DNA of 53,040 nucleotides, counting the filler, from Jimgerdemannia flammicorona (lineage: Eukaryota), in the NCBI GenBank assembly GCA_003990765.1. It is 2 parts of 2 records of this genome, joined end to end, with 100 filler letters (N's around TTAATTAATTAA, not from the genome) between each part and the next. Parts side by side here need not be neighbours in the genome. Positions count along the whole stretch, not along the records: positions 1 to 26,490 come from RBNJ01000724.1; 1 more part is not named here. One strand, 5' to 3'. The notes beneath the pieces are model-generated. The model saw only the letters and a list, made by a program, of their open reading frames with translations. It was not told the origin of the DNA and did not search any database. Position 1 is the stretch's first letter; every line of letters begins with the position of its first letter. Shown piece by piece: positions 1 through 42,799 of the stretch. Made by a program: the position numbers and the translations under genes.

Positions 1-19
1 AAAAAAAAAAAAAAGACAT

Positions 20-1265
20 ATTACTACAGACAATATCTAATTAGAAAATTTCTGAGATTAGTTAAGAGTGAGATCTAATATAATATAGATTTACTTAAGA
101 GTAGTTTGTGAATTATTAAATAGATTTATTCACTATTCATAATATTACCTTTAGCTAATATTAGGAGTAGTATATAAAGAAATATTAGTATAGAATTGTT
201 CATACTTAGGTTATCTGTATTCTTGAATATAGATTGAGATTTGAGAGAGAGAAAGGCTAAATATAAGTTTAGTACTTTAGTATAAATGAGTTAGAATATA
301 GTCATATAATACTAACTTAACTATACTAATGACTGTTAAGCTATTTATAGATTTATACACTGTCTGGATATTTATTAATAAGATTACTATCTCTGATAAA
401 GTAGTTATCCAGAAAGAGTAGTTTTTAGACTATATTTTCATACTCATTTATATAGTAATATGTTAGAATAAATTGATTATCTTATAGAATAGTATCATCT
501 TTCTCATATATATACTAAATATAATATTAGTAGATAGAGAAAGAGTATAACATCTTCATCAGATTTGCTATTAGTATACTTTTGATAGGTTATGGTACTA
601 TATATATATATTACAGAATTATAATATACTAAAGGTTGTTCTTTATTTTATTCATACTTAGAAAATAGAGTTATTAGTTTTATCTTGAGAGTTGTCTAGA
701 GATATAGGTTGTATTTTTCTGTTTTTTTATTATAGTTGAAGTAATCAAATATGAAGACAGATTAGTACTCATGCTAGTGGTCATTATTCCAATAAGTCTC
801 ATAAGTAGTTATAAACCATTATAAGTTAAGAATTTTTATATAAGTTATAATCAACTTATTAATAAATTCTGTACTATAGTAAGAGATAAATTCTTCTGAA
901 AATCTATATCTGAGTATAAGATTATAGAAGAGACTAATTATAGTTAAGGCATTAGTGATTTCTATTGAGAATACTTGAGATCATTTGGTCAGATGTTTCA
1001 TAAATACTAAGATATATTTATTTCTTCTTAGTATAACTGATAGAGATTTAATAATATCTACTCTCTATCTTTAGAAGATATAAATAGGTAGTATAATCAG
1101 TTGTAGTAATACTTGATGATTTTTTTTTTCTTAATACTTTTGGTAGATATTACATTTCTTAAATATATCTCTATATAAATTGTATTCTGAGATAGGACTA
1201 GTATTAATATATTTTTTGTAGCTTTTTTTTTTATTTATATTTATCTATCATTAGTAAGTCTTCTG
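20..1265 (-). mobile_element. Decayed Ty3/Gypsy LTR-retrotransposon integrase region
   Basis: Minus-strand manual translation of ~1200->840 gives 'KKCNIYQK' (HHCC CxxC remnant), 'LQLIILPIYIF*R*RVDIIKSLSVILRRNKYILVFMKHLTK' and 'LILRYRFSEEFISYYSTEFINK'. These match the Gypsy integrase core (vDi.gPLp...GNkYiLV.vD.fTK; RfG.P..iisD.G.eF.n). Very AT-rich, CpG-free, many stops. Boundaries approximate. Confidence 0.75.
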
Positions 1266-1289
1266 ATATTTTAATTAGATAAGATATTC

Positions 1290-3297
1290 TATAGGAGAAA
1301 GGGGACCTAATGAGCTACAGGATGTGCTGGAGGAGGACTAAGATAAGTCAGTAAGGATAAATACTAAGAGAAGTCAGAGAGTTGGAGAGCAGGAGATAGC
1401 ACTTGATGTTAATGAGGCCATTAGAGAGGAGAGATAGCTGTGGAAGGTGCTGATGAATATTATAGCAGATGAGTTAGAGCAAGATTGATTTTTATATAAT
1501 TAGTAAGAGGTACTAGAGTGAGGTCCTATAAGGTGAAGAAGTGGTGTGGAAGCTTCAAGATAAGCTAATAGTAGGCTAGGGGTATAAGATAGATGATAAT
1601 AGAGAGGCAGTACTTCTGATAAGTGTGAATGAATATATATTATATCTGTGGGGCCTTAGGAAGAAGGTGGCAAAGTAGCAGATAGTGTGTAAGAAGTATC
1701 AGTCTATTATAGAGGCAGTGGATGATGAGGACTGTTGGAAGATCTTGGAAGCATTGAATACTCAACAGGGAGAGACAGATGAGCTTGAGATAGAGAGAAA
1801 TTTGGATATTACTAGTAATGTAATGAGTATGAAATTATAGAGTAGATGTTTATTTTCCAAATATTATTCAATATGAATAGTATAACTAGAATCTTCTCTA
1901 TAAATATCAATGGACTATAGGGTGAGGTGAGGTATCAGAATATTTTCAGCAGGTTAAAGAGACTGAATATAGATCTGTTCTTACTGTAGAATATAAGATA
2001 TAATGTAGACTTTGATATGCTAGACTAGATGAGAGAATGAGGGGAGACAGCTATATAGTAGGGTCAAGTGGGCATTCTGATTAGAAAGAGCAAGAGAGAT
2101 ATTGGAGATATTGAATATTAGGAGGACAGAGTGACATAGGGAGTGTGAAGGCAGCCAAGCTAGAGCCCCTTGACTGTTGGATTATATTATTGCTCAGCAG
2201 AGAGAGAGGAGTACTTGGAGTAGATAAGAGAATTATGAGATGTAGGTACAATAGTGACAGAGAGGATTGACTATCTGAGTAATAACTTTAATATAATATG
2301 AGATGAGCAGTTAGACAGGACTGATAGAGAGAGAGAGATAGTTGGTAGAAGTAGAGAGATGGAAGACTGAGAGGAGATTGAGAGGCTGAGCTCATTGATG
2401 GATACTAGATATCTTGGATAGAAAGATTGAAGAGTCTATACTCACTAAGTAATAGGGCTAAGTTCAAGGATTGACTGGATCTTAACTGCTGAGTGCTGGA
2501 GAGTAGATGTCTGGAGACAGTGTGGTGCCCATAATCAGATCACTGGGGTTTACTAGACTGCAGAAGATTTGGAGGAAGTAGGGAGGGATCTAGATATTAA
2601 TATCTGAATACTTCATTGCTGGGAGAACCCTCCTTGTAGAATACAGATAGTAGACATTAGCTTCAGAAACTTATACTGGATGGCACAGGAGATAGAGATT
2701 GGGGATCATTGGTGGTATTTGAAATTAGATGCCCAGTGGTTCTGAGAAGAGATAGGGAGGAGAAGGGGTGCTCAGAGGAGAAGTCATTTAAGGTGGGCTT
2801 CCCAGAGGTTGGAGAAGATATTAGAGAAGTGGGCAACATTACTGAATGATAGAGAGAAGGGGGATTGGAAGGTTTAGTAGATCTAGCTAGAGGTGGAGAA
2901 ACTGAAGAGACTGTTTAGGCAGAAGGAAGAATTGCAGGTCAAGAATATGGTAGCCCAGCTGAAGTGGTAGGGCTTGGAGGAGGGAGAGAGGCCTACAAAG
3001 TTTTTGTCAAGGCTGCTTTAGGTGAGGGGGGCAAGGCAGTAGTGGGAAGGAGTATTGGATGAGACAGGAGAGATGGTGGTCAGAACTCCAGGAATCTTGG
3101 ACCAGTTGAGGTCTTAATGGGGGTGATTGTAGAGTGAGGAGGAGGGGGGGGAGGATGTACTGGACATTGAACAGCATCTGGTAGATTGGTACCTGGACCC
3201 AGCAGAGGGCTTAGGTGAACTTGGAGTACCTGTCTGAGGGGAGGAGATCTGTAGGGTGTTGGTGATGATGAGTCTTGGGATAGCTCCAGGAGAGGAT
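1290..3297 (+). mobile_element. 5' half of a decayed L1/Tx1-like non-LTR retrotransposon (possible ORF1 remnant, APE endonuclease, pre-RT linker)
   Basis: From ATG 1873: MNSITRIFSININGL*, DLFLL*E, LSNNFN (GDFN), SRIDWIL, SDH, EEGERPTKF. Ends with EEICRVLVMMSLGIAPGED at 3297, cut inside the K.PG.DG motif. 5' boundary approximate. Confidence 0.85.
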
Positions 3298-4007
3298 CGG
3301 ACACCGGGCTCTGGATCCATCCATCCCTCATCAACCATTCGTGCCTCGTAAATTAAAGCTTCCTCGACATTGGCGATTACATGTTCATTCGCGCGGTTCG
3401 CGACCTTAACTAGGGCGAAGAGGTCTTTGTGGAGTATGTGAAAGTCTTAGATATATACGTACAAAGGTCGCACGAAGAAGCAATTTCGATTGCCAGTGCC
3501 CATTTTGAGACTTTGAGCGGGCGCAGCCGGAGGTGACGCGTCGCCGCGCGGCTGCTCGACGAATTTACGAGGATGCGGCTGGCAATTCAAATGGGCAATG
3601 TGGGCATGATGCCACATCTAAAGATTACCACGGACGAGATTCGTAAGACGTACTCGGCCACTGGTGCGACGACATCCACCCGCTCACGCCTAGGAAAAAG
3701 AAGGTTACCGCTGGCGGTGTTGCCACACCCACGGCACCGCCCGCTTTATTTTCCCACCTGAATGCTTGGCCGGTTCACCCGGGCGGTCCAGACGCTATTC
3801 GAGGCGTTCGAGGTCCTGCCGCACATTGCCAGGTTCAATTTTCCCCGCGTCGACATCGCCATGCAGATTGGAAAGATGTACGGGATGCTCAACAGATTCG
3901 ATGAAGGGGAGCGGTGGAAAAAAGTGGCTAGAAAGGAGTTTCAGATGACTTATGGCGAAGATCAGGGGCTTTGGCAGGAGTATGTGGATGATTTCAACGT
4001 GTGTTAA
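3298..4007 (+). pseudogene. C-terminal half of a fungal TPR-SET (SMYD-like) methyltransferase pseudogene
   Basis: DTGLWIHPSLINHSCLVN*SFLDIGDYMFIRAVRDLN*GEEVFVEY (SET NHSC and GEE..Y motifs), post-SET FDCQCPF* at ~3484-3508, and a C-terminal helix ending ...YGEDQGLWQEYVDDFNVC* at 4007. In-frame stops and frameshifts present. Confidence 0.85.
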
Positions 4008-4199
4008 TTTGAGTTTGGTCGCTGATAAAAGTGTTACTCGAGAGCGTCAAGACAAAATACACGAAATAAATGTCAATAAATTGCTGTCAAGAAAGTAAAA
4101 CGTATATGTTTCCCATGTACACAATGTAAATCCTCGATGCACTCGAGCCTTATCCCACGCGAGGGCGCAACGCTGCCTCTTACTGGAAAGCAAGTCGCG

Positions 4200-5070
4200 C
4201 TGTTCAGGAAAGCCACGAATATACTTCGTGAATGATGAGTTGTTGAATTTGTCTAGGGATGCTTACCAAATTTTCTTTGTGTTTGCAATATGCTGCAGAA
4301 AAGGTAATAATGACACGAGTTTGCTTTATTTCGCAAATTGAGGAAAATGCGACAAAAAGGTATGTTCTATAATACACTCGGGGGAATGACAAGCCATCTA
4401 AACAGGCTTTCGTAATGTATAGAGCATGGGAATACGGAAACGAGGGCGAAATTAAGGAAGAGGCCCGAATAAACACCCTCCCATGAATCGGTATACGATA
4501 AAAGGATCATGCTTTTTGTTAAATATGTAACTCGGAAATTTCTTAGGTGTCTTGTTCTAGATGTGGACGTCATCAATGGTGATATCATAAATTGCGTCAT
4601 CAATAATTTCTGGAACATATATACACAGCACCTTTGCACCTGTATTTGTAAATCGCATTGAAAATCTACAAGGCATGTCCACCTCAAAAAACTTGCATAG
4701 TTGCAGCTAGCATACGCAGGTTTGGTGATTGGGAATTTTACTGATTGTTGTCGATGCAGTCCATCTTTCAAAGAAATAAAAGATTGTAGTGGACTGAACA
4801 TAAGTGCCGCCGCCCGATTGTCGAGGGTTGAACCAAACAAATGACCGTTGGAACCTTTAGCTAGCAGGAGTGTGGGTCCTTGATTGTCGCACGTTTGATG
4901 GAAGTAAGCCATGAACGGAAGCTTGGCATAGCTTGTTGAACCAGCGAATTTCATCCAGCTATCCCATTTGCCTCTATAATCCACGTTTTCAAAAGCGTCG
5001 ATGACTCGCGGTTGGCAATGTGAAACGGATCGCCGGAGTCAGTGGTCTAAGAACAGTATTTAGCGCCATG
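4200..5070 (-). pseudogene. TLDc-domain pseudogene (possibly two TLDc repeats)
   Basis: ORF 4367-4984 contains FHQTCDNQGPTLLLAKGSNGHLFG, SFISL and KFPI, typical of TLDc (FH..CD..GPTL.l.k...g.iFG). The frame is broken. Confidence 0.65.
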
Positions 5071-6895
5071 AGCTGCTGAGCTGAAATGAGCGACTGATCT
5101 ATCCCCTTGCGTCCGCATCGGAAGCCACGTTGCCTGATGCCGTCTCCGAGTGTGTGTCGACATGGATTTCACTAGCAATGTTCATTTCACTTGTGATTCC
5201 ACCACGGGTTTCAAGACCTTTGCGTGGTGACATGCCCAGTCCAAAATTAAATTCCAGACTTCAAATTCGGCCAAGGGGAGCTGGTCGGAGGTGAGGATCC
5301 GCATGGAAAGTTGAGGAGATATTATTCGAAGAATGTGGCGCGCAAGACGGCAGACCCGAGGGTGGTCACCATGTGAACGACAGGGAAGTCAAGAAGCTCT
5401 TGGAAGAAATCGGGGAGAGTGAGTTGATGCGCGAGGATTATGAGAAACTAACTGACTGCGAAGGTTAAAAAGAAGGCGCTCTGGCATTTTCCTGTCGTCA
5501 TCGCCTTCTTTTATAACAACATGTTTTAACAGCTCCATTATGTCGGCTTCACATTCGAAACTCAGGGAGCAGCGATCAGATCGCGAAGAATTGTCGTTGA
5601 TGGTGCAGGAGTGCATGGAATGCGCCATTCGAAATGTTGGGCTTGCGAATTATGCCACTGGTCGTCTCCTTCCAGTCGTGGCTGAACAATGTATCGAAGT
5701 ATTTGGAGCGACAGCAAAGAATCTATGAATGGCCGTACATTGTAACTGACTCAACATTTTTGCACGTCTTGTCGTCTAAGTCACCTCCTCCAATCAAAAA
5801 ACGAACATCGCTGCCGTTGGGGTTGACGGTACGGCCATGTCTTGAGAAAGTTTGATGGCACCGGCGACGGAGGTACGATGTTGGGTATCTGGCATGTTGA
5901 CAGTGAGGGCTGTTGGTGTGAAGGAGTAGATATATAAAATATGGTAGAGTAATGTGTTCACTCTGGTTAAAAGCAGCTTTGGCTCATTTTTATGTGAATA
6001 TATTTGTATCTTCTCAATTGCCTCGGCGTCATATTGAGTCTGTTCAAATCAAAACCGACCTTATCTCCTAACGAAATAAGGCTGGTTTGGATTTTAACCC
6101 ATTCAATATGAATATTGCGGTGGCGGATATACGAGCGCAGGAAAAGAACCTCCCCTCACAGAGCGTCTTCATCCCCGGGCCCCAGCCAGCCGTTCCACCG
6201 CTCACACTCGCAACATGCTCAAGGATTCAGCTCTAAAGAATCTCTCTGTCTAGAGAAAAATCACTATCTTCAAGGCCCAACTCAGAGAACCAGCTCTACC
6301 TTTCTTAATTTTATCCGAAACTGTTGTTCACGACCGCGTTGAGCGCGATAAAATGTTTGTTATCATCCCTCTCCTTCCAGTCCCCAATTTATCTCCAACC
6401 CATGCTCAAGGTCGTTCATGCTGTCTGGTAATGAACAGTCGAGGGTTGGGCGTTTTATTTTGACGAGCCGTGACAGACTACAACCTTGATTCAGAAACAG
6501 GGTGACTCGCAAATTCTGCGATATTCGGAGTGATGATAAGATGCACTTGTCAAATGTCCTCCGTTATGTGTGCATGAAAATATGTCCGAATAGGAGGCGA
6601 AACCGGACGCGATACAACTCTATTACGCAAATGGCAAACAAAATTAACCGTGCTGCCATGTAAAAAAAAAAAAAAAAAAAAAAAACCCCCCGAAGGGGGA
6701 ACCCTGATCCCCAAAATAATTCAAAACAATTATAGACAAAATTTTCTAATGGTAGATGTCGCCCTCTCCACCCCTAAAAGGCCCGAATTGGACCACTTCC
6801 ACAAAAAAAAAGCGTAGCCTCCTCTAGTATATCACAACCCCACAGGCCCTAAATTCACTGCGTGCACGATCGTCCATAGTACCGCACCACATCCA

Positions 6896-6993
6896 TCACT
6901 CGTTGCCGTATTGCTCCAACATAATACTTAGGGCCCAGCGTGCCATTTCCTCATCGTCGACGTACGCTAGCTCGGTGTACTTGCCGTCTTCAT

Positions 6994-7027
<34 letters not shown>

Positions 7028-7751
7028 ACCATCGTCGTCGTCATCGTCTTCACCATCGTCGTCGTCATCGTCATCGCCGTCATCACCGTTGTAACAGAAC
7101 TCGTCAGAGGCGTAGCCTTTGATTGGCGAGTTGTACAAGAGCTCGTTGTCAGACTCTAAAGAGGTCATGATAGATTTTTGTAAATAAGATGGAAAGCAGG
7201 TTAAGTTGTTGGGACCAAAAGAAGAGGAATGAATACCCACCTTTCTCTTCCAGTCCATCACCCTTAGATACGACCACTTCCTACACCGGTACGACCGCCA
7301 CACAGTCTGCCATCTCTTCATTTACCGCCTCTACATTACGGCCTCTATATTTACCACCTCTCCATTCACCGCCATCTACTCCATGACTGCGCCGCTCTGG
7401 TGCGATCCGACCGCCACTTGAGACACCACTTGCGGCACCGCAGACGCCTCTCTGACCCCATTACCTTGGGGCACGAGGAATGGTCGCCGAGGTTTTCTGC
7501 TTGATGGTAGGTCTGATCGCCGTTATTATATTGCGTCTGATCGTGGACTTTTCCCTCCAGACCTTTGGCAAAATTAGCGTTTGGGGGCCTTCTTCCTCTC
7601 TTCGAGTATCCGGAGAGACGTCTGTAGTTTGTCTGGTTCTCGATGGTGGAGCAATCTCAGCCTCATGATATGTGGGAGGGAGGGAGGGGTGTGTTGCAGA
7701 GACAGGCAAAAAGAGATGATGGTGGCTATACGCGAATTGCATCGTGGTCAC
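6896..7751 (-). pseudogene. Hypothetical or degenerate gene with an acidic Asp-rich (GAY)n tract
   Basis: ORFs 7461-7751 and 6896-7321. The GAY codon repeat at ~6990-7087 keeps frame and encodes poly-D. No recognisable domain; in-frame stops lie between the ORFs. Confidence 0.3.
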
Positions 7752-8627
7752 TGCATGCCATTACAAAGTCCTTCAACCATTTGATGCCACTTTGTCGGCC
7801 CAAAATTAACACTCTCATCTGCTAACCCAACCCGTCAAAAATAGAAGTAAAAATAAAATAAAAATCTGCCATAAACTCCACGTCGGCCCTCACGTCTGCC
7901 ATTTGGACATTGTATGATTCACATGCTGAGCATTCGTGCGAACAAGGATCCACTTGAAGAGTCATTCCCAGCGCGTTGACGGATTTCAGGTTTAATATAT
8001 TATCACATCAATAGCTGCCGACCATTTATTACCAGTAACCCACTCCACGTTGCCGTTCCAAGCAAAGATGGAAAGACTCAAATCCTCTTTAAGGTGATGC
8101 GAATCTGTCAGCCCACAGAAAAAGAAAGAAAAATCAGAAATAACAGATGTTGTCGGTTCCATCAAAGCCGCAGGTACAATGCTTGTGAGGTGGGGGGTGT
8201 GTTTGAGGAAATCTGACAAAGAATCAAGACCATGTGTTGGGATGCCATGAACGCAAACGGGAAAAAACTGACACAAATATTTCGAACGTTGACAGTGTGC
8301 ATGCACGCTGCGACGAGAAAGCAATTACCGTTATGCATCCGATTCGATTAGTCGGTTCTTGACGGTGCAAGTTGCCGTGAAAGGAATAATTGCAGGCTTT
8401 ATAAAATGCTCAGCGATGGCGGTTTCTAGTTTCTTACAAAAACCAGAGTAAAACACTACAATAGCTCAAATTCAAACAGACTACAATTAAAAAATAGTAG
8501 AAAACCCATTCCGGCCATATGTACATTATAATAGCATTTTACATCTAACTAATGACAAAGGAATAATGTTGTCACATAAAAGAAAGGAAAAATAAATAAT
8601 TTGAAGGCGAAGAGGGTAAGAAACGAA

Positions 8628-9718
8628 TCAAACCCTCTCACCAACCGACTTTGATGCCACCCAAGTTGAATCATCGCCGTCTGTCACCTGCGTCCCTGGA
8701 GTAGGATGTGAGGTCGTGGCGATGCTCGCTTTGACGAGGATGGAAGGGAAAAACCGCTGCCGAAGCTGGTCGAGTATGTATTTTGATGGTGGTAGAGAGT
8801 AGAAGTCGTATAATATCATCCTGTTTATTGGGAGGGGTGTGTGCATGAACATATGAGTATATATTCGAGCCGCGGTAATGGCATAAGAAAAGTGAGTAAA
8901 ACACTGCTTAGGAACCGAGGACATACCTAATGAAAACCCCGATGGAGTCCAAATTAATGTGAATGTCGTTATAACGTGGGTCGGAATTTGCCATTGTGAG
9001 GCCGAGAGGAACGATGGAAACGATCACTATAATAACTATTCCTGACAGGTACCTAGTTTCGAATAAAACCATATCGGTTGAGCGGAATAGGTTTACGTGT
9101 GGTAAATATAATTTGGTGCATGATATTCCGGTTATAACCTTACCAAATGCCTACGGCAGCCACAGTGGAAGGCACACCGCGCATGCCCGTTCGAGATGTC
9201 ACAACAGGGCGAAATACATAGCAGAACGACAAGAAGAAGCCCGCAAGACCAAGTACGAGCGCCGATATGTGCAACTCCCGGCCCAAATTGTACGTGGACA
9301 AGGATATCATCAAGACTAAGCCGGGGATCTCTAGAATGTTCGCTGCCACGGTCGTCACGATGACGGTCCAGTACAGCATGTTGATGCGTGGATGATCGAT
9401 GTAGAAGCTGCTCCCCAGGTTCAGTGTGACGGCGACGAGAAGGTCGAGGGTGAAGATCATTTCCAAAGTGTTCAGCACCATGAAGGCATGGGTGTCGATA
9501 TCCTGCGATATCAGGAGCATGTTGCCTATCCCCAACCCCACGTTCATGAGTCCCATGACGAGGCAGGCGCCGCGCAATAGGGTGAAGTCGAGGACAGCCT
9601 TCCGACCGACGATTAGGCAGCTAGCGATTGCGAACGCTATGCTGGCCCAGGCGAGGGCGGTGCAGGCGAGTGGGTTGGTGATGGGGGGGGCGGTGAGGGA
9701 GGTGAGTGTAGAGTTCAT
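8628..9718 (-). CDS. Multipass (~7-TM) membrane protein, 3 exons
   Basis: Exons 9718-9144, 9052-8927 and 8820-8628 splice in frame at GT-AG introns (…VGIW|YLSGIVII…; …GVFIR|MILYDF…). Several hydrophobic helices; no stops. Confidence 0.75.
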
Positions 9719-10076
9719 TCTGTGGATTAAGGATTGAAATGGGGCCGTTGGCGGATATGGGGGAGAAAAGAGTTTTTGTGGCGGAAGTCTTGGACAATAC
9801 TTGTGGTTCGTGGTTCATGGCCTAGAAAATTTCTATAATCATATACAAATGGGGATGCCCGGGCGACGATCCTGTCAAGATCAGGAATTTCGTGACCAAA
9901 CCCCACCCCGTTTCAATCTAAACTTGCTGACTGCGCCGTGCAAGCTGGAAAATAAAATAAAATAAAAATTAAAAACTAGAACTAAAATCAGCGCTTTGCC
10001 TGACTATACAGACCATTAATTATTATAGATAAAAGTTGAGGAATAGGAAAAAAAAAAAAAAAAAAAAAAAAAACCA

Positions 10077-10135
<59 letters not shown>

Positions 10136-10838
10136 ACCCTCAACCAACAGCAAACAGTTCGGGGTGGACAGGCCGATCAATCGTCTGGAGTAACCAATCA
10201 AAATCCCAATACAATCGGCACTCGAAGGCGTTAATTATATACCTCAAATAAGATGCGTACAAAAAGTTTAACTACGTAAGAGAAAAAAAGCTTAATAAAT
10301 GAAAGAAATAAAAATGAGAGTGTATTCTACAGAATGGGGTGGTGCGTTTTCGTTACACAAGGAGAATAAGAACGGACGTGCAATTCATAAGGCAAACAGT
10401 AGGTCTAAATTTAGTTCAGTTATGCACGTGTCCGAGGTACGGGAGCGTTAGGTGGGACAAGGCATTCGTGTGTGTGGGAGAAATTTGGTCCGGTTAGAGT
10501 TGAGTCAGATCGGTTCGAGTTGAATCATTGGACATCTGGTGTGCACAACGCAATCTCTCGTGTCCCTCGCAACTACATTGTATACATGTTTTGATTTATT
10601 TTGGGGAATATCGCAGCAAGTCGGAATATCGACATTGCGTGGCGAATGGTCAGTTCGGCATAAGCGAACCCGACAGGTAGAATACAGTAAACAGGGAGGT
10701 GGGAGGGTGCGAAAACGGGATGAAGTCGCTAGTTGCAGGATTGCAGCGAAGCGGAAGAGGAACAACGATGTGTTTGGCAAATTGTATTTAAAAGGGAAAA
10801 TGCAAGGTTGACCCGTTATACCTATTGCTATTCCTACT

Positions 10839-11452
10839 TGTCACAGATGTCTTAGATACCGGATGTCACGTGTCCGTTGGGATACCTATGCAGATTAAAT
10901 CCCCGTCTTACTACTCTGAGCCCAACCCTCCGTGAATAATAAATTGGATGAATATATGTTTGTGTATTGGGTGAGGAAAGTTCTGTCTCGAATGCATTGC
11001 ATTGGTCAGTTCGAAGTACCCAGCCCAAAGAAATTAGATAAGCTTACCTCATTAAGAACAAATCCAGAAATCACATGCAAGATTATAAAGCGAAGTCAGA
11101 TTACAAAGCTGAGTCAACTCAAAGTCACAGAACATAAGACTCACAAAAATGGAATCTTACCAATCAAGATCAAAGATATATATATCAGATACACAGTTTA
11201 TCAAAATAGAGAACTTCAAACAACAACTATAAATTCTCAAACATATATCTAATTCTGACCACTAAAGTTTACAACTACATCTGTACTAATATTTAAAATA
11301 TCATTATCAATCATACTACAGCACTTCTATCTCTAATGAATACCTATAGTCTAGCATCTCTCTACTTTGTAAAAGTCTGATAGAATGCTCTAAATATACT
11401 TAGTAAAGTTTACTGAATCAGACAAATCTCAAACTACTATTTAATCAGCTAT
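10839..11452 (+). mobile_element. Possible LTR/PBS and RNase H remnant of an LTR retrotransposon
   Basis: TGTCAC start at 10839, CA followed by TTGGTCAG (PBS-like) at ~11001-11009, and weak 'IIINHTTALLSLMN…NALNILSK' similarity to the Gypsy RNase H (iTDH.AL; N..ADALSR) at ~11297-11410. CpG-depleted. Confidence 0.3.
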
Positions 11453-14400
11453 TTTTTTTTTTTTTTTTTTTTTTTTAATAGAATTAAGTAGTGTTCTCAA
11501 ATAAATTGAATCAAATCAAATTTAACCCAAACTTGATTCAATTTGATTGAATCAAAGGTCTAATTCAATTCAATTTAAATCAAATCAAAGGTCTAATTTA
11601 ATTTGAGATTTAATTTAAATTCTATTTTTTAAAATATAATAACTTAATAAAAACATATCTATATTTAAAGATATTTAGTTTGTTAAATTTAAGTATATTT
11701 CTATTAAGTTATTATATTTTTAAAAATAAGATTCAAATCAGACCCTCAATTCAATTCAAATTTAATTTGATTTGAACTTAATTCAAATTGATTTGATTTA
11801 TTTAAGAATACTAAAATTAAGTTCTTATAGATATTTATTAGAAGAGTACCTAAACTATATAGACCAAAACTCTCTCCCATCTTTCTCTTAAGCACTATCT
11901 CTCTATTGTTCTTAGGCTATATAGAGAACCCACAGTCTCACCATTCTAGCTATATAAGTGTAGTATTTTATACTTCTATTCCAATAATATATAGACTGAA
12001 CTAGTCTGTTTACTAAGACTGAATCATCAGATCAATACCATGAGAACATATCTATATATTAGATCTAATGATACTAAGACTGAATAATATAACCTCTTTG
12101 ACCTCAAATAAAAGTCAGAGATAAAAGAAAAATCCTTCAACCAATCAATAAGAAGTAGAATAGATTCAAGATAGGTGAGTAAAAGACTTATATGTGAGAT
12201 CTCTACAAAAGAACTTATATATAAGCTAAGATCTGAAAAGATCTCACTTCTACTCTCCAAGCCTATAGGCTTCAATTATATTATCATATTAACTCCTAGT
12301 TCTAGTCAGATACTATCAAATAAGAAAGAACCTACTCTTTAAGCCTATAGGCCTCTTTTTTTTTTATTTTTTTATATAGTCACTTGGACTTCTACTTTAT
12401 TATCCTCTAATCTATATTATACTAATACAAATATATAATATACTCCTCACTCAATCCTACAAAGAGTCTCCTCTTCTCTCCCATTTCTTTCTCTCCATCT
12501 TTTTGGAAATTTACTATCTCCTCTATAACTCTAATCCTCTTTCTAATCTATCTACAAATCTTCTCTATAAGTCTCTTATAGAGCTCTTCTCCAGATCTCT
12601 ACCCTCTCTATCAATTATTCAAAAGGTCTAATAATAACTATTTCTATCTCACAACTTACACTCCAAGTGCCAACTACTGACTATCCTCAAATATATATAG
12701 CTAATATTCAATAAGTTCAACCCAAATAGCCAGAACCCACCTAATAGTTAACTACTTATCTCCAATCTCTTCCACCAATATCCTCTGAAGATCACTCCAC
12801 CTTCTACCCACTATTTGCTCAGATAGATGTACTTCTATCTAATCCTTGATAGTCTTTTAAAAGTCTCTCATAACCTTGTACTCTCTCAGCCAATACTCAG
12901 GTATCTGTACTACTCTACTCTCTTACTCAATATTAAGGTACTCCTCATACTCCAGAGTACCCCCTTTTGTCAAATATCCTGATCTATAGTTCAATATCAC
13001 ATTGTACTATAAGAACCTCTACTATACTACCCAGAACTTAGGGGAAATCTACCTTACCACCTACTTGCTCTAAGACTAAATACTATTCCAGTCCCACTCT
13101 TTGCCAATTCCTACCCCTTGCTAGGTCTCCAGTCACAAATCTCTTCTATACTCTTGAAGATATTCTATACTATTCTCCAAACTAAAATCATCCACTGGTA
13201 TGCTCTCTAATAAAAGATAGTCCCATCTCTATATCTAGAGTCCCCAGTCCTTCTCTTCTCATCACTCTACTACTAAAGACTAATTTATTGAGCACCATCA
13301 ACTACTTCTCACTAGAATTTCCTATAGTGCATCTTCTAGCTCTTCTCTAGTACTATTTGAGAGAACAAGTTACCAGATGTACTATAGAGAGAGAATCATA
13401 CTTCCCACACTCTCTGTATAAGGGATACTCACTCTTGACCCCTCAACTTGCTAGCTTACTTCAGCCACCATACTCTCAAGCAGTATAGATACTTAGTAAA
13501 GTCCACTAGACTCAGCCCTATCTTGTCTACTGATAATGTCATTATCTTCCATCCAATCTGACTCTGCTGCTCTATCAAAATCTATGACCTGACTATCTTC
13601 AATAGTCTCTTAACCACCCATACTAAGAAGTTCAAGTGATATCCCAGATATCATAACTTAGACAGCTAATATATATTCAACATCATCACTCTTCTAGCCA
13701 GAGAGATATATTGGCCACCTCACCTCAGAAGAGTACTGCTCTACTCAATCAGCTACTGCTCTCACTATTTCTGAGATAATAGAGAACTATATACTGAGAA
13801 GTAGATCCCCAGATATCAGACCACCTCTTCTGCCAGAACAACTGTTCCAATCACATTCTCTCCTACTATTCCTCTACCTAATACCAAAGTCTTGCACTTA
13901 TATCAGTTAAGCTTAGTACCTAAGTATCTCTCATACTATTTTACTACACTCTTCAGTACTGTCACATCCTCCACAGAGCCCAGCCTAACTACTATATCAT
14001 CAGCAAAGACCCCCACCTTTCAGTTTATTCTCAGAATATTCAATCCCTCCACTTTGTACCTAATCCTGTCTAACAAAGGCTCTAGAGAGAGGGTATAAAG
14101 GATTGGTGACAGTAGGTCTCTCTGCAGCACTCCTCTGTCTAGAGGAAAAGACTCTCCCCTATAACTATTCATCATAATAGCCACCTGACTCCCCTCCAAC
14201 AGACTGATCAAAGCTTGCTTGAATCCTTGGAAAATCTCTATATACTTCAGCACCCCCTCCAGTCACACTTACTGGACCTTGTCATAGGCCTTCTCCTGGT
14301 CTAGAAATACTAGCTGACCATTGACCCTAGTAGCATGGGCTTCTTCAATAACACTGTGGACCCATGCTGTTCTATCTCTTATTAAATAACTCCTGACAAA

Positions 14401-14670
14401 GCCTCTCTGCTCTGTCCCCAATACCTACTGAGCCACTCCTTGCAACCTAGCCACTAAAATCTTTGTAACCAACTTGCAATCCATATCCAGAAGTATAATC
14501 AGCTTCCAGTTCTTCAAATCCTCCCTTCTCTCCTTGTTCTTATATAAAAGACCCAAGTGCTGCCCCCCAATCCAGGTCTCTGAGCCAATAACCTCATTAC
14601 ACATCCATGTCATCTAATCCAAAGCCACCTCCATCCCCACCATCCTCTTCCAGAAATCCCAAGGTAAACC
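11453..14670 (-). mobile_element. 3' half of the same L1/Tx1 LINE (reverse transcriptase, 3' region, poly(A) tail)
   Basis: Starts GLPWDFWKRM at 14670; LLYKNK…LKNWKLIILLDMDCKLVTKILVARL; RGVLQRDLLSPILY (QGDPLSP); VFADD at ~14000; poly(T) 11453-11476 on + is the poly(A) tail. Confidence 0.9.
11489..11813. mobile_element. hAT-like MITE (325 bp) inserted in the LINE 3' end
   Basis: TIRs TAGTGTTCTCAAATAAAT (left) and TAGTATTCTTAAATAAAT (right, reverse complement). 8-bp TSD GAATTAAG (11481-11488) / AAATTAAG (11814-11821). Internal fold-back (~11624-11660 vs ~11692-11728) and TCAAAT/TTGAAT subterminal repeats. Confidence 0.85.
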
Positions 14671-16200
14671 TGTAACCCTGCGGCGGTATGCATGAGTTGC
14701 TAATTGTGAAGATAGCGGCGTCCGGAGCTTGTCGACGACCGTGAAGTTGTTTTCAATATCGATGTTGGTAGTGCGGGCGATGTCGATTTCCGCGGTCTCC
14801 GTTGCGTTTGTACAATTCGTGGACATGGGTGGCATGTTGGGGCCGGCATAGAGGTTGTAGAATCCAGTTGCCGTCCACGGCTATTTCTTCAATTTGTCGG
14901 TAATCTTGATGACGATGTCGGGAACGGATTTCTCCTCGAAAACTACCGTGAAGGCCTTGGAGCACAGAAGCAGTATTCCTTCCGCAATTTTCTTCGTGGC
15001 CACCATTCCACGGCCCGTTCCGGGGATCTCAGTGATGCGCACGGGGCCCATCGTAATTTGAGTAGTCCAAGTAGGGTGGCCACGTCGACTGAGCTTTTGC
15101 AAAATGTTCATGACGTTGTACCGACCATGTTTTTGTTCCTCGAGCCGCTGCCGCGTGCGTTAGACAATTCTTGCGTCTCTGCGGTCGTTATGGTCAACAT
15201 TTTTAAGCTATTCCATGCCTCCTCATAGCATCTCATGGCATAGAGCGCCTTGGCTTGACGAAGCCGCGCCTTTGGATTCGCTCCATCAAATCTTAAAGCC
15301 GTCTTGTCATCTTGCGGCGTCTTCCGGAACTTCTGGAGTTACAGATGTGCTTGGATAGCAGTACGGCGTCATCCGGCTCCGGCTCTGAGGCTTGAGTATG
15401 GCTGCCAATAGCCGATGCGTATTCTTTACGATTGATTGTTCGTTTCCGCTAAGATGTAGGTCGCCGAACTTTCCGCTTCGAGGCCTTTATTATGCTTGAT
15501 AAGGGGGCCATACTTGATTGACACCGCATCGGACCACCGCAATCCGGCTAACAACGGTCCGTCAATCTGCTCACTTGGTACCAGGACCACATCGTCCGGG
15601 GGATCGCACCGGAGCATTGGGAGGCCGTCCTCCCCACCAGTTTTGTAGGAAGGCTCCCTGATGGAGAGGCCGCTTGCAATGAAATTTTAAAGAGACAGGC
15701 GCGCCGTCGTGACTTTTGTCTCCTGTACGGCAGACGCCCTTCACCAATGATTGGGTCCTCGATTTCTACATGGACGGCAACGGATTGCATAAAGCCATTA
15801 TTATATAGAGCAAAAATAAAAAAAAGGAGAAAGAATCGTCGAACGTCATCTAATTATTGTATGCCACGAATTTCCGTTGTACCTAAGGATATTGACGTAA
15901 TTGGTGACGTCACCATAAATTTCACCAGCCCAACATTGGATGCCAATTCCATCGTTGGTAGTGGTAGTTATGGCATGGTTGTGAGACGATCTAACAAGAT
16001 TATTGGCTATTTCTGTTTGTAAAACTGCCGAATGTGCGGGCGTATGTCGTCTTAAAGCAAATGAGCCAATACCTCCCATTTACCAATCTGAATTATAGTC
16101 GTCCACACTTTGCTGCTCGAAGCATTTTGCAATGGGATGGAAGGTAGCCTGCAATCAGCTAGTTCGTGATACTGAATATGAGCGATCTTTGCCAAAAGGT
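14671..16200 (-). pseudogene. N-terminal half of the TPR-SET pseudogene
   Basis: VHVEIEDP, LSIREPSYKTGGEDGLPMLRCDPPDDVV (family N-domain), TPR-like NPKARLRQAKALYAMRCYEEA, RLEEQKHGRYN, SET start GPVRITEIPGTGRGMVATKKIAEGILLLCSKAF, and IENNF. Frameshifted; truncated at 14671. 5' end approximate. Confidence 0.85.
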
Positions 16201-26490: not shown

Positions 26491-26590
26491 NNNNNNNNNN
26501 NNNNNNNNNNNNNNNNNNNNNNNNNNNNNNNNNNTTAATTAATTAANNNNNNNNNNNNNNNNNNNNNNNNNNNNNNNNNNNNNNNNNNNN
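26491..26590. other. Artificial contig spacer (44 N + TTAATTAATTAA + 44 N)
   Basis: Exactly 100 bp and symmetric. The central 12-mer gives stops in all six frames. Confidence 0.95.
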
Positions 26591-39913: not shown

Positions 39914-40214
39914 AGAAAAAAAAGACTAAATTGATTTGTGTTTGTTGTGACCCGGCCTTACTCCCGTCATAAGTAGGCTCGAGGTCCTGCGTATGGCTTG
40001 TACAACCTCGACATGTTAGCACTCAAAGTCCATTCAATCGCGGAACCTATTGTGGCCTTTTGTTTTTGATTGTACATTCTTCGAAAAATCTTGTACATAT
40101 TTCATGAACGGATTTGTTATATGGGGCGTGCTGCAACAAAATCAGACAAAGTGAACATTAATTTTGACGTCACTCAATGCATCAGCTCGAAGATTTTATT
40201 TTTGCCATCGCTTT

Positions 40215-41160
40215 GCTTGTAGCTTTTTAATAATGAGAAGGACACAACAAAAGTTCACAAGAAAAGAAGAGCAAAACAGCAACAAGCTTTGTCTAGATTT
40301 TTTCTTCTTATTTATTGATTGTGTCAAGCAATCTTTGCTTGTTCTTGCACTTCTTTGGCTTCTCATTTTGCTCAATATTTAGCAATAGCTTTGATAAAGT
40401 CTTCATTTTTGAGATCTGAAATAGTAGTTTTAAGATGATAGATATTAGGAGCTTTGATGTATCTGTTGACAGCATTATCAGGTAGAATCAAATATTTATC
40501 AGGGAAAAAATCTCTTGTTTTTTCTATTATAACTGGATTATCATCAATAAAAATATCAAAGTCTAGGTTCTCCTCTTTCAATCATATCAATGAGTGAGAT
40601 ATCAACCATTGCCATCTTTAGCAGGAGGATTAGTTTTGATAAACAATAAGTGGGTATTAGGAAAGTTCCTAAAAGTTTTCTGAAAAGGTTTTATTTTTCT
40701 ATAAAATTTAATCACTAGCTAAATCCTTATATTTTCCTTTCAGAGTGGTAGTTAAAATAATTAATTCCTCAATTAATTGACCATCTTGGAGTACTAATAA
40801 TAATTCCTTTTCAATAGAAAGAAAAGATGAATAATTATAAAAAGTAGATTGATCACTATAATATTATTTATCTTTTTAATTTTCTTCTTTCTTCTCAATC
40901 ATCAAGCTTGATAATTCTTTTCTTTTCATCAGAATTATCAGGATCAATGTAGGAAATTTTCATCAATTAGTATTTATTTTAGTATTAGGAGAAAATGAAT
41001 AATCTTTATTCTCATAGAGTATAATTTTTGCTTTCTCTTAAAATCTTTTAAAGTATTCTACAAAATTTATATTTTTCTTACTAACTTCTTAAAGAAGAAA
41101 TAGCTTGAAAGATATTAAACATTCACTCAGTTATAGATGACTTTGACTTTTCTCTCTTTG
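40215..41160 (-). pseudogene. Left-arm HAD-like (5'-nucleotidase-like) gene remnant of probable Mollicutes origin
   Basis: KVKVIYN[TGA] (motif-I-like, 41150-41127); STFYNYSSFLSIEKELL…LIEELIILT; [TGA]LKEENLDFDIFIDDNPVII (HAD motif IV-like D..IDD); hydrophobic C-terminal tail. Intronless, decayed. Confidence 0.6.
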
Positions 41161-41829
41161 AGTTTAACTTACTCTTTGATAAAAGTATAGAGAGAGTTAG
41201 TTTTATTTTGATTATTTATATTTTTACAACTTTAGTAATATAAATAATTTTATTTATTAATTATGTAGTTTTGGATAAGTAATATATATCTTTAAATTTA
41301 TCTCTGACAAATAGGCAAATATTATAATAAAGATATTCCTGATATTTAAATTCTAGCATTAGAAATAACAAGGTCTTGATTTTTTTTATACTCTTTAAAC
41401 TCTCAAACTTACTGGTTTTTAATAACTTGAATTCTTGAAAAGAACTGTTTGCAACTTCTTAGACTTTAACAATACCTAGATTTGCTCTAGTGAAAAAAAA
41501 AATATTGAAACTTTTATAAACTAGACAATTTTTTAAAATATATTTCCAGACTACTTATAATGTTATAATATTGAAAATCTTTATTACTATTATAATGCTA
41601 AGCTTTATTTAATCTAACAATGCTAGATCTTTTTACTATATTGCAGATATAGTCTATATAGTCTATCATAGTTTTATGATAAAGTCTTTTAATCAAGCTA
41701 AAACTACCATACATTTAAATTTAGTATAATCTAAAACTATAAAATTAGCTCAATAGTTTCATAATAACCAGTAATTATCAGATATAAATATATAAAACCA
41801 AAGAGTAGTATTGTTTTTATTTTATTTAT

Positions 41830-42660
41830 CTACATTATTATAAGTAACTTTTAAATACTTTTCTTCTTTATTTAATTGCTTAATACTATCAAATATTAGG
41901 CTAAGAGTACCATTCAGACCTGTTTTAAAAAGCTTATTCTCATCTAGTATATAATTAATTTACTCATATACTACTTTATTTTAGATTTCAAACAACTATA
42001 CTAAGATAATATATTTTACTGATTTATTAATTTGAATAAGATATATAGATATTTTGGACTTAGTTATAACTGTAATAGACAGTAGTATCAATGTCTTTAG
42101 AACTTGTTAGTATTAGCTTAAAAAGAGGATCTGGTTGAAGAATTAATAATTTTAACTGTTGCTATGAAAGAGAGGTATCCTAATAATAGTGGTAATCCTA
42201 AAAAAATTAAACCATTTTCCTCAATGTAAATTAAAATTCATCCTAACTGTCAAGAAAATGATGATTATTTTCCTCTAAGATGGGTATGAATACTCTGGAT
42301 TTCAATATTTTTATTGAAGATAATCCAGTTATAATAGAAAAAACAAGAGATTTTTTCCCTGATAAATGTTTGATTCTACCTGATTATGCTCCCAACAGAT
42401 GCATCAAAGCTCTGAATATTTATCTTCTTAAAACCACTGTTTCCGATCTCAAAGATGAAGACTTTGTCCAAGCTGCTACCAAATTTGAGCCAAGTAAGAA
42501 GCCAAAGAAGCCTAAAAACAAGCCAAGATTGCTCAGCACAATTAGCAAATAAGAAGACAAAATTGAGACAAAGCTGGTGTTGTTTATGGTCTGCTTTTTC
42601 TGGTGAACTTCTATTGTGTTCTTCTCATCATTAAAAAGTGATGAACAAATGGCAAATAAA
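41830..42660 (+). pseudogene. Right-arm paralog of the HAD-like gene
   Basis: EDLVEELIILTVAMKERYPNNSGNPKK; RWV[TGA]I…DFNIFIEDNPVIIEKTRDFFPDK…; hydrophobic tail at ~42575-42635. 5' boundary approximate. Confidence 0.6.
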
Positions 42661-42799
42661 ATCTTCGAACTGATGCATTGAGTGACGTCAAATGTTCACT
42701 GTCTGGTTTTATTGCAGCACGCCCCATATATAATTATATGCTTAATCTGATCACAAAGTACACAATTCACGTTGCACCCCCTCCCCAAAACCGCAACGT

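Follow-up and report, generated by a model that had tools for sequence, protein, structure and literature searches.

An 11.4-kb inversion that splits a LINE and a TPR-SET pseudogene in Jimgerdemannia flammicorona, and a dip in C-to-T decay centred on its break

Results

A LINE and a TPR-SET Gene Copy Lie in Halves at the Ends of One Segment

We analysed a 53,040-nt stretch of DNA from Jimgerdemannia flammicorona (Endogonales, Mucoromycota; assembly GCA_003990765.1), here called the window, in which a long interspersed nuclear element (LINE) and an intronless pseudogene copy of a TPR-SET gene each lie in two halves, at opposite ends of an 11,373-nt segment (Table 1). Window positions 1–26490 are contig G000:C724 (RBNJ01000724.1) from its first base, and this contig matches both junctions at 100%. 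The nearest N to either junction is at 26491, and the two 44-N runs with 12 bases between them at 26491–26590 mark the end of the contig.

The 3′ part of the LINE ends in a poly(A) tail, seen as a T tract at about 12357–12374 on the plus strand, and this A-rich-tailed 3′ end is common to the window LINE and all eight copies shown. Homology of the window LINE stops at its 5′ boundary, with other copies extending further upstream, and no Pfam match was found in the decayed 5′ part. The intact paralog of the broken gene is itself intronless, has TPR and SET Pfam domains and is identical to a public J. flammicorona protein.

Table 1. Features at and around the inverted segment, in window coordinates.
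Feature	Position	Strand	Remarks
Inverted segment, 11,373 nt	3298–14670		flip restores LINE, TPR-SET and enclosing repeat
Junction 1, LINE 5′ part to SET C-half	3297–3298		blunt; no added bases, no microhomology
Junction 2, SET N-half to LINE 3′ part	14670–14678	-	SET end short by net 4 nt; possible templated filler
LINE 5′ part, decayed	1288–3297	+	endonuclease-like region judged by eye; last residues APGED
LINE 3′ part: reverse transcriptase, 3′ end, poly(A) tail	12357–14670	-	RVT_1 reverse transcriptase domain (Pfam), E 1.9e-20; shared 3′ end
C-half of intronless TPR-SET pseudogene	3298–4007	+	86% identical to intact paralog L022
N-half of the same pseudogene, alignable part	14671–15791	-	82–83% identical to L022
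Left part of older repeat, host of LINE and other insertions	19–827	+	collinear with 11452–11056 (-) in L047, L039, L042
Right part of older repeat	11056–11452	-	right strand only once flipped
Left halo, spared C/G in LINE	2550–3297	+	strongest in last 250 nt, fading by ~500–750 nt
Right halo, spared C/G in LINE	13920–14670	-	loss below expectation

Flipping the Segment Restores the LINE, the TPR-SET Copy and an Enclosing Repeat

The original prediction held that the segment is a reciprocal inversion splitting both elements, and proposed to check this by reverse-complementing it in silico and aligning it to paralogs. This check bore the claim out, as paralogs cross both restored joins. After the flip, the LINE reads APGED-GLPWDFW in frame, as had been foreseen. 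In a set of 20 LINE loci, out of the best 40 of 946 candidates, the restored join was spanned by a single alignment in 18/18 loci, and it was gap-free in 16 of these 18 over the 50 columns shown. The restored TPR-SET join was spanned by all four distinct paralogs that match the flipped query. Independent of both elements, the older enclosing repeat is collinear after the flip only, its two parts being consecutive and co-oriented in the three copies examined (L047, L039 and L042), which were chosen for matching both parts. The decay levels of the two LINE halves also match: both rank 2/19 for GC, with a residual of 0.002 against a standard deviation of 0.021. A test for the partner half of the LINE by distance profiles was uninformative, since the true half ranked 4 and 8 of 19 and intact controls ranked 1–12. 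As judged from paralogs within one assembly, the inversion of 3298–14670 is real in sequence, with exact breaks at 3297/3298 and 14670/14671; a single end-joined inversion is supported by the continuity of the paralogs across the joins and by the enclosing repeat, whose two parts the flip also reunites.

Three of the Four Ends Were Joined Without Loss

No inverted match (0 nt) was found on the outer or the inner side of the breaks, which agrees with the claim that no repeat flanks them, and neither junction carries additional paralog-defined bases. The LINE side of the breaks lost 0 nt; a 9-nt LINE deletion 123 nt from the break was treated as unrelated. The window SET copy is net 4 nt shorter than L022, with the gap placed 4 nt before the break at 14671. 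The frame of the SET N-half at the break is HAYRRRV, and the QGY that had been read across the SET join belongs to another frame. Joining is thus blunt, as predicted, at three of the four ends and not at the SET N-half end, and the statement that nothing was lost or filled in is true of the LINE side only. The predicted lack of microhomology stands for junction 1. Junction 2 carries an 8/9 near-tandem repeat across 14670/14671 (minus strand), in which the SET sequence just before the join looks like the start of the LINE sequence joined to it; this score was reached by 61/3000 random SET–LINE joins and was noticed post hoc.

By its sequence, junction 2 possibly fits trimming followed by a short templated fill. 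Such trimming and filling have been described in fungal break repair (10.1101/2021.09.08.459484), and filler resembling the neighbouring end at a Drosophila breakpoint (PMC7584159). Other routes to an inversion were rejected: a staggered-break inversion, as the junctions carry no end duplication; repeat-mediated ectopic recombination, as the breaks lie in a LINE and in a TPR-SET copy with a match of 0 nt; and transposase-driven inversion by alternative transposition, as both breaks are internal to the LINE and the gene copy and not at a DNA-transposon terminus.

C-to-T Loss in the LINE Dips at the Break

We examined the decay of the LINE at sites where its paralogs vary between C and T or between G and A. 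Non-CpG C-to-T loss in the window LINE dips symmetrically at the break, to 0.35 (left) and 0.39 (right) of the expected value, leaving a halo of spared C/G on each side. Within 250 nt to the left, 12 of 125 sites were lost against 34.1 expected, and within 250 nt to the right, 13 of 106 against 33.4. The ratio of observed to expected loss climbs to 0.68–0.73 at 250–500 nt and to 1.03–1.05 past 1 kb, a smooth gradient and not a step. Away from the break, the expected loss per site is highest at CpA, followed by CpC, and lowest at CpT.

The two sides of the halo rank 1/25 and 1/23. In 97 paralogous pieces on 78 contigs, an equally low loss was found in 0/638 adjacent bin pairs and in 1/737 single bins. 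The pieces had been taken, for their likeness to the window copy, from the top of lists of hundreds to thousands of candidates; such a choice should shrink, not inflate, the contrast. When a dip was freely placed in a scan of ±1500 nt, it centred at 0 (−50 to +100 nt) with a likelihood ratio of 63, and the fitted loss at the join was 0.23 (0.10–0.38) of background.

Of the CpG sites inferred within 300 nt of the break, 23/23 were lost. No spread of mutation into the SET halves was seen, conserved CpG sites there having been lost at 4/25 within 200 nt, 3/38 at 200–500 nt and 9/45 beyond.

No Halo Arises From the End of Homology by Itself

The influence of the flank was assessed at LINE ends with 500 nt of flanking DNA, 40 near and 60 far sites, a halo being counted where the near/far ratio was below 0.7. 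Halos were found at 1/80 ends beside CpG-free DNA, 0/9 beside intermediate DNA and 2/5 beside CpG-rich DNA (Fisher p 0.008). One halo-bearing flank is low-copy, and an additional halo beside CpG-rich DNA, at C269, lies outside the counted ends. A first control, based on how far edges lie from CpG-rich DNA, gave mixed results (clear halo in 1/5 pieces) and was then redone with more copies. Since none of the 58 truncated LINE ends beside CpG-free DNA has a halo, the end of homology alone does not produce one. The near/far ratio at the window LINE's own 5′ end is 1.01. Classical pairing-dependent repeat-induced point mutation (RIP), which should fade at the end of homology whatever the flank, was rejected on these two results. 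By analogy with other fungi, we infer that methylation or chromatin would underlie the halo.

Three further observations touch on this process. Four genome matches to the C5 DNA methyltransferase family (L144–L147) may belong to the mutating pathway. The GC content of a CpG-free element at 40118–42730 tapers from about 0.35–0.4 at both edges to about 0.2 inside, as an edge model predicts. A young, very abundant repeat at L046:2450–3250 (G000:C1437; 5550 candidates, 92–95% identical) has kept its CpG and adjoins a decayed LINE end.

Most Non-CpG Decay Probably Followed the Inversion

According to the original prediction, the inversion post-dates the decay of the LINE. This has to be revised for non-CpG sites, as the dip is centred on the break: because the loss at the join is so small a fraction of background, most non-CpG decay probably came after the flip. 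If the loss at the join equals the state at the flip, roughly 60–90% of the non-CpG decay followed junction formation, and at most about a quarter (10–38%) preceded it. Since every CpG near the break was lost, CpG decay may be either earlier or blind to edges.

CpG content does switch at both junctions, as had been noticed: 1–3297 and 11092–14670 contain 0 CpG, and CpG is present at 3298 and 14681. This abruptness is not specific to the junctions, as the native repeat edge at about 11056 (last CpG at 11091) is nearly as sharp, and the switch was therefore rejected as a dating argument.

The TPR-SET copy carries 36 private transversions in 1307 sites, against 23 in 4037 for the LINE, and 15 indels in about 1.8 kb (about 8 per kb), against 6 in 4289 nt (1.4 per kb). 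The 15 are the 19 listed against L022 minus 4 in the unalignable 5′ end, and one of them is at the break. Substitution rates at codon positions 1+2 and 3 are 0.081 and 0.099 in the SET copy, compared to 0.046 and 0.110 in the intact paralog. Because of this higher indel and transversion load and the flattened codon-position rates, the SET copy had probably died by the time of the LINE insertion, and hence before the flip, if the rates are comparable. The idea that the inversion killed the gene is disfavoured, the load of the SET copy being about five to six times that of the LINE. The order of events would be decay of the SET copy, LINE insertion, inversion and then most of the non-CpG decay.

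Other Features of the Segment and of the TPR-SET Family

The open frames at 9140–9814 (minus strand, hydrophobic-looking), 4367–5038 (minus) and 6896–7321 (minus) inside the inverted segment gave no match at the Pfam cut-off. A short AT-rich element at 11500–11791 matches L050 in both orientations and looks like a miniature inverted-repeat element in the repeat cluster.

The best TPR-SET matches outside Endogonales are proteins of a liverwort (Riccia; P0014 and P0015, on chromosome-scale contigs), at 34–35% identity and E values of 8e-89 and 6e-82; matches in Glomus, nematodes and springtails rank below them. Endogonales are partners of liverworts, and the patchy spread of TPR-SET could come from gene transfer between symbiotic partners.

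Discussion

Taking the observed geometry of the inversion, the sequences of its ends and the halo with its centre together, we consider it very probable that two double-strand breaks were rejoined by end joining, and that repeat-directed C-to-T decay then continued. The breaks would have fallen about 11.4 kb apart on one chromatid, one within a LINE nested in a repeat cluster and the other within an already decayed TPR-SET copy, and their ends would have been mispaired on rejoining by end joining, the pathway to which the junction anatomy points. Three ends would have been joined losslessly, whereas the SET N-half end would have lost net 4 nt and maybe gained a few bases copied from its new partner. 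After the flip, the repeat-directed C-to-T process would have continued, acting weakly within about 0.5 kb of non-repeat DNA, so that the LINE halves, given new edges, would have been spared near the joins.

The halo could have a different origin under the same inversion. In one such account, which we regard as very unlikely, the LINE was already under-methylated at this spot, which was then hit by the break, and the flip is possibly recent. This would equally put the dip at the break, and the complete CpG loss near it means that some decay was finished. However, the un-inverted order places the spot within a repeat cluster at least 6.9 kb long (1–3297 plus 14670–11056), the 97 other pieces contain no such internal two-sided dip, and the taper resembles those at some ends beside CpG-rich DNA. 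Just as little weight falls on an origin of the halo in break repair, with a less decayed LINE copy serving as template for repair synthesis or gene conversion. Both flanks of a break undergo resection and resynthesis, and copying of this kind would raise C/G around it. The gradient is smooth, though, without a step, none of the 23 CpG was restored, the left half still groups with the right half in one subfamily cluster, and similar tapers occur at unbroken ends.

The inversion itself could also be called into question. It is highly improbable that the segment was flipped in silico, by assembly or processing, on an un-inverted chromosome, because the mutation dip is centred on the break. The lossless state of three ends is what a computed flip would give, but such a flip offers no reason for the only two-sided dip among the bin pairs to centre there; moreover, the SET end is 4 nt short, and neither junction has a shared k-mer, a gap or an N. 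Least likely of all is an origin of the halves from two different LINE copies or in two events: the true partner half did not stand out in the distance-profile test and no target-site duplication of the LINE is readable, but the two parts of the LINE fit together exactly and those of the SET copy within 4 nt, the same flip splits the enclosing repeat, and the decay levels agree.

Several points weigh against the reading of an end-joined inversion followed by edge-sensitive decay. An un-inverted ortholog was not found by a protein search with the intact paralog (29 matches), by a search of longer proteins with a 134-aa piece of the window N-half (4 matches among 765 candidates, the best, at 79%, being the paralog itself) or by a metagenome scan (26 pattern matches, 0 confirmed). 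The 4-nt loss might be background, as the pseudogene has about 1 indel per 130 nt, which gives a chance of 5–14% within 6–20 nt, and the paralogs L023, L024 and L026 have indels of their own (−1, −43, insertions) at the site matching 14671–14681, which may be a variable loop or a fragile site. For the age comparison between SET copy and LINE, indels and transversions are taken to arise at similar rates in the two kinds of DNA, and the agreement rules differ. The length of the right-side taper is weakly constrained, the fit having reached its bound. A rank test comparing CpG-rich with CpG-free LINE ends showed no significant difference (p 0.14). Numbers in the flank control are small, and three of its five CpG-rich ends lack a halo, with copy number checked for one such flank. 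One of these ends adjoins a young repeat with 92–95% identical copies; at the other two, the CpG island is only about 400 nt and the first CpG lies 214 nt out.

With these points taken into account, we still think it fairly likely that, in this early-diverging fungus, it is the chromatin domain around a repeat that sets the repeat-directed C-to-T mutator, and not the element or the end of homology. The inversion would then be a natural experiment in which the interior of a LINE, brought next to non-repeat DNA, gained a protected zone of about 0.5 kb, whose depth could date or verify rearrangements from one assembly, and an early or edge-insensitive CpG phase would be distinguished from an edge-sensitive CpA/CpC phase. 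The halo may thus offer a check on, and a means of dating, rearrangements in fragmented assemblies without reads or relatives. Our literature search on dating an inversion by a mutation gradient at its breakpoint, whose coverage left out most subscription journals, found nothing. The rearrangement itself is of little consequence, both broken sequences being probably already dead.

To judge by its anatomy, the inversion is of the ordinary cut-and-paste, end-joined kind, and the halo is a useful by-product. The cut-and-paste class comprises clean double-strand breaks with non-homologous end joining (PMC7584159, citing Wesley and Eanes 1994). As in this class, set out in that paper on the Drosophila subobscura O7 inversion, there are two reciprocal junctions, breaks free of repeats in either state and no inverted duplication; here the flip restores both loci, the breaks have no homology, and the ends are kept within a few bases. 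It differs in that it spans only 11.4 kb, belongs to an Endogonales fungus, has both breaks in dead sequence and was recognised through paralogs in one assembly instead of through an un-inverted chromosome.

The decay has parallels in other fungi. In Zymoseptoria tritici, transposons undergo Dim2-dependent 5-methylcytosine formation and C-to-T mutation, with CA and then CC most methylated and CT least (PMC8016269). The LINE shares the repeat-confined C-to-T loss beyond CpG and the order CpA > CpC > CpT, here seen in a mutation record; the main text of that paper uses neither the word edge nor the word boundary. In Tuber melanosporum, transposon methylation is lower within 0.5–1 kb of expressed genes in both CG and non-CG contexts (PMC4165359). 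The length scale and direction are the same, repeat DNA being less marked near non-repeat DNA, but methylation was measured there, beside expressed genes, whereas our record is one of mutations next to a pseudogene, which arose within the element following a rearrangement and in which CpG is fully lost.

In Neurospora crassa, RIP fades over about 150 bp at repeat ends, which has been explained by weaker pairing where homology ends (10.1101/344036). Mutation declines toward the repeat end in both cases, but the zone at our locus is about 500 nt or more, and it is absent at all 58 truncated ends adjoining decayed repeats. To these systems, the locus adds a taper that forms anew at an internal LINE position after a rearrangement, and it separates, in a member of the Mucoromycota, two possible causes of a taper in C-to-T decay, the edge of homology and the edge of the repeat domain.

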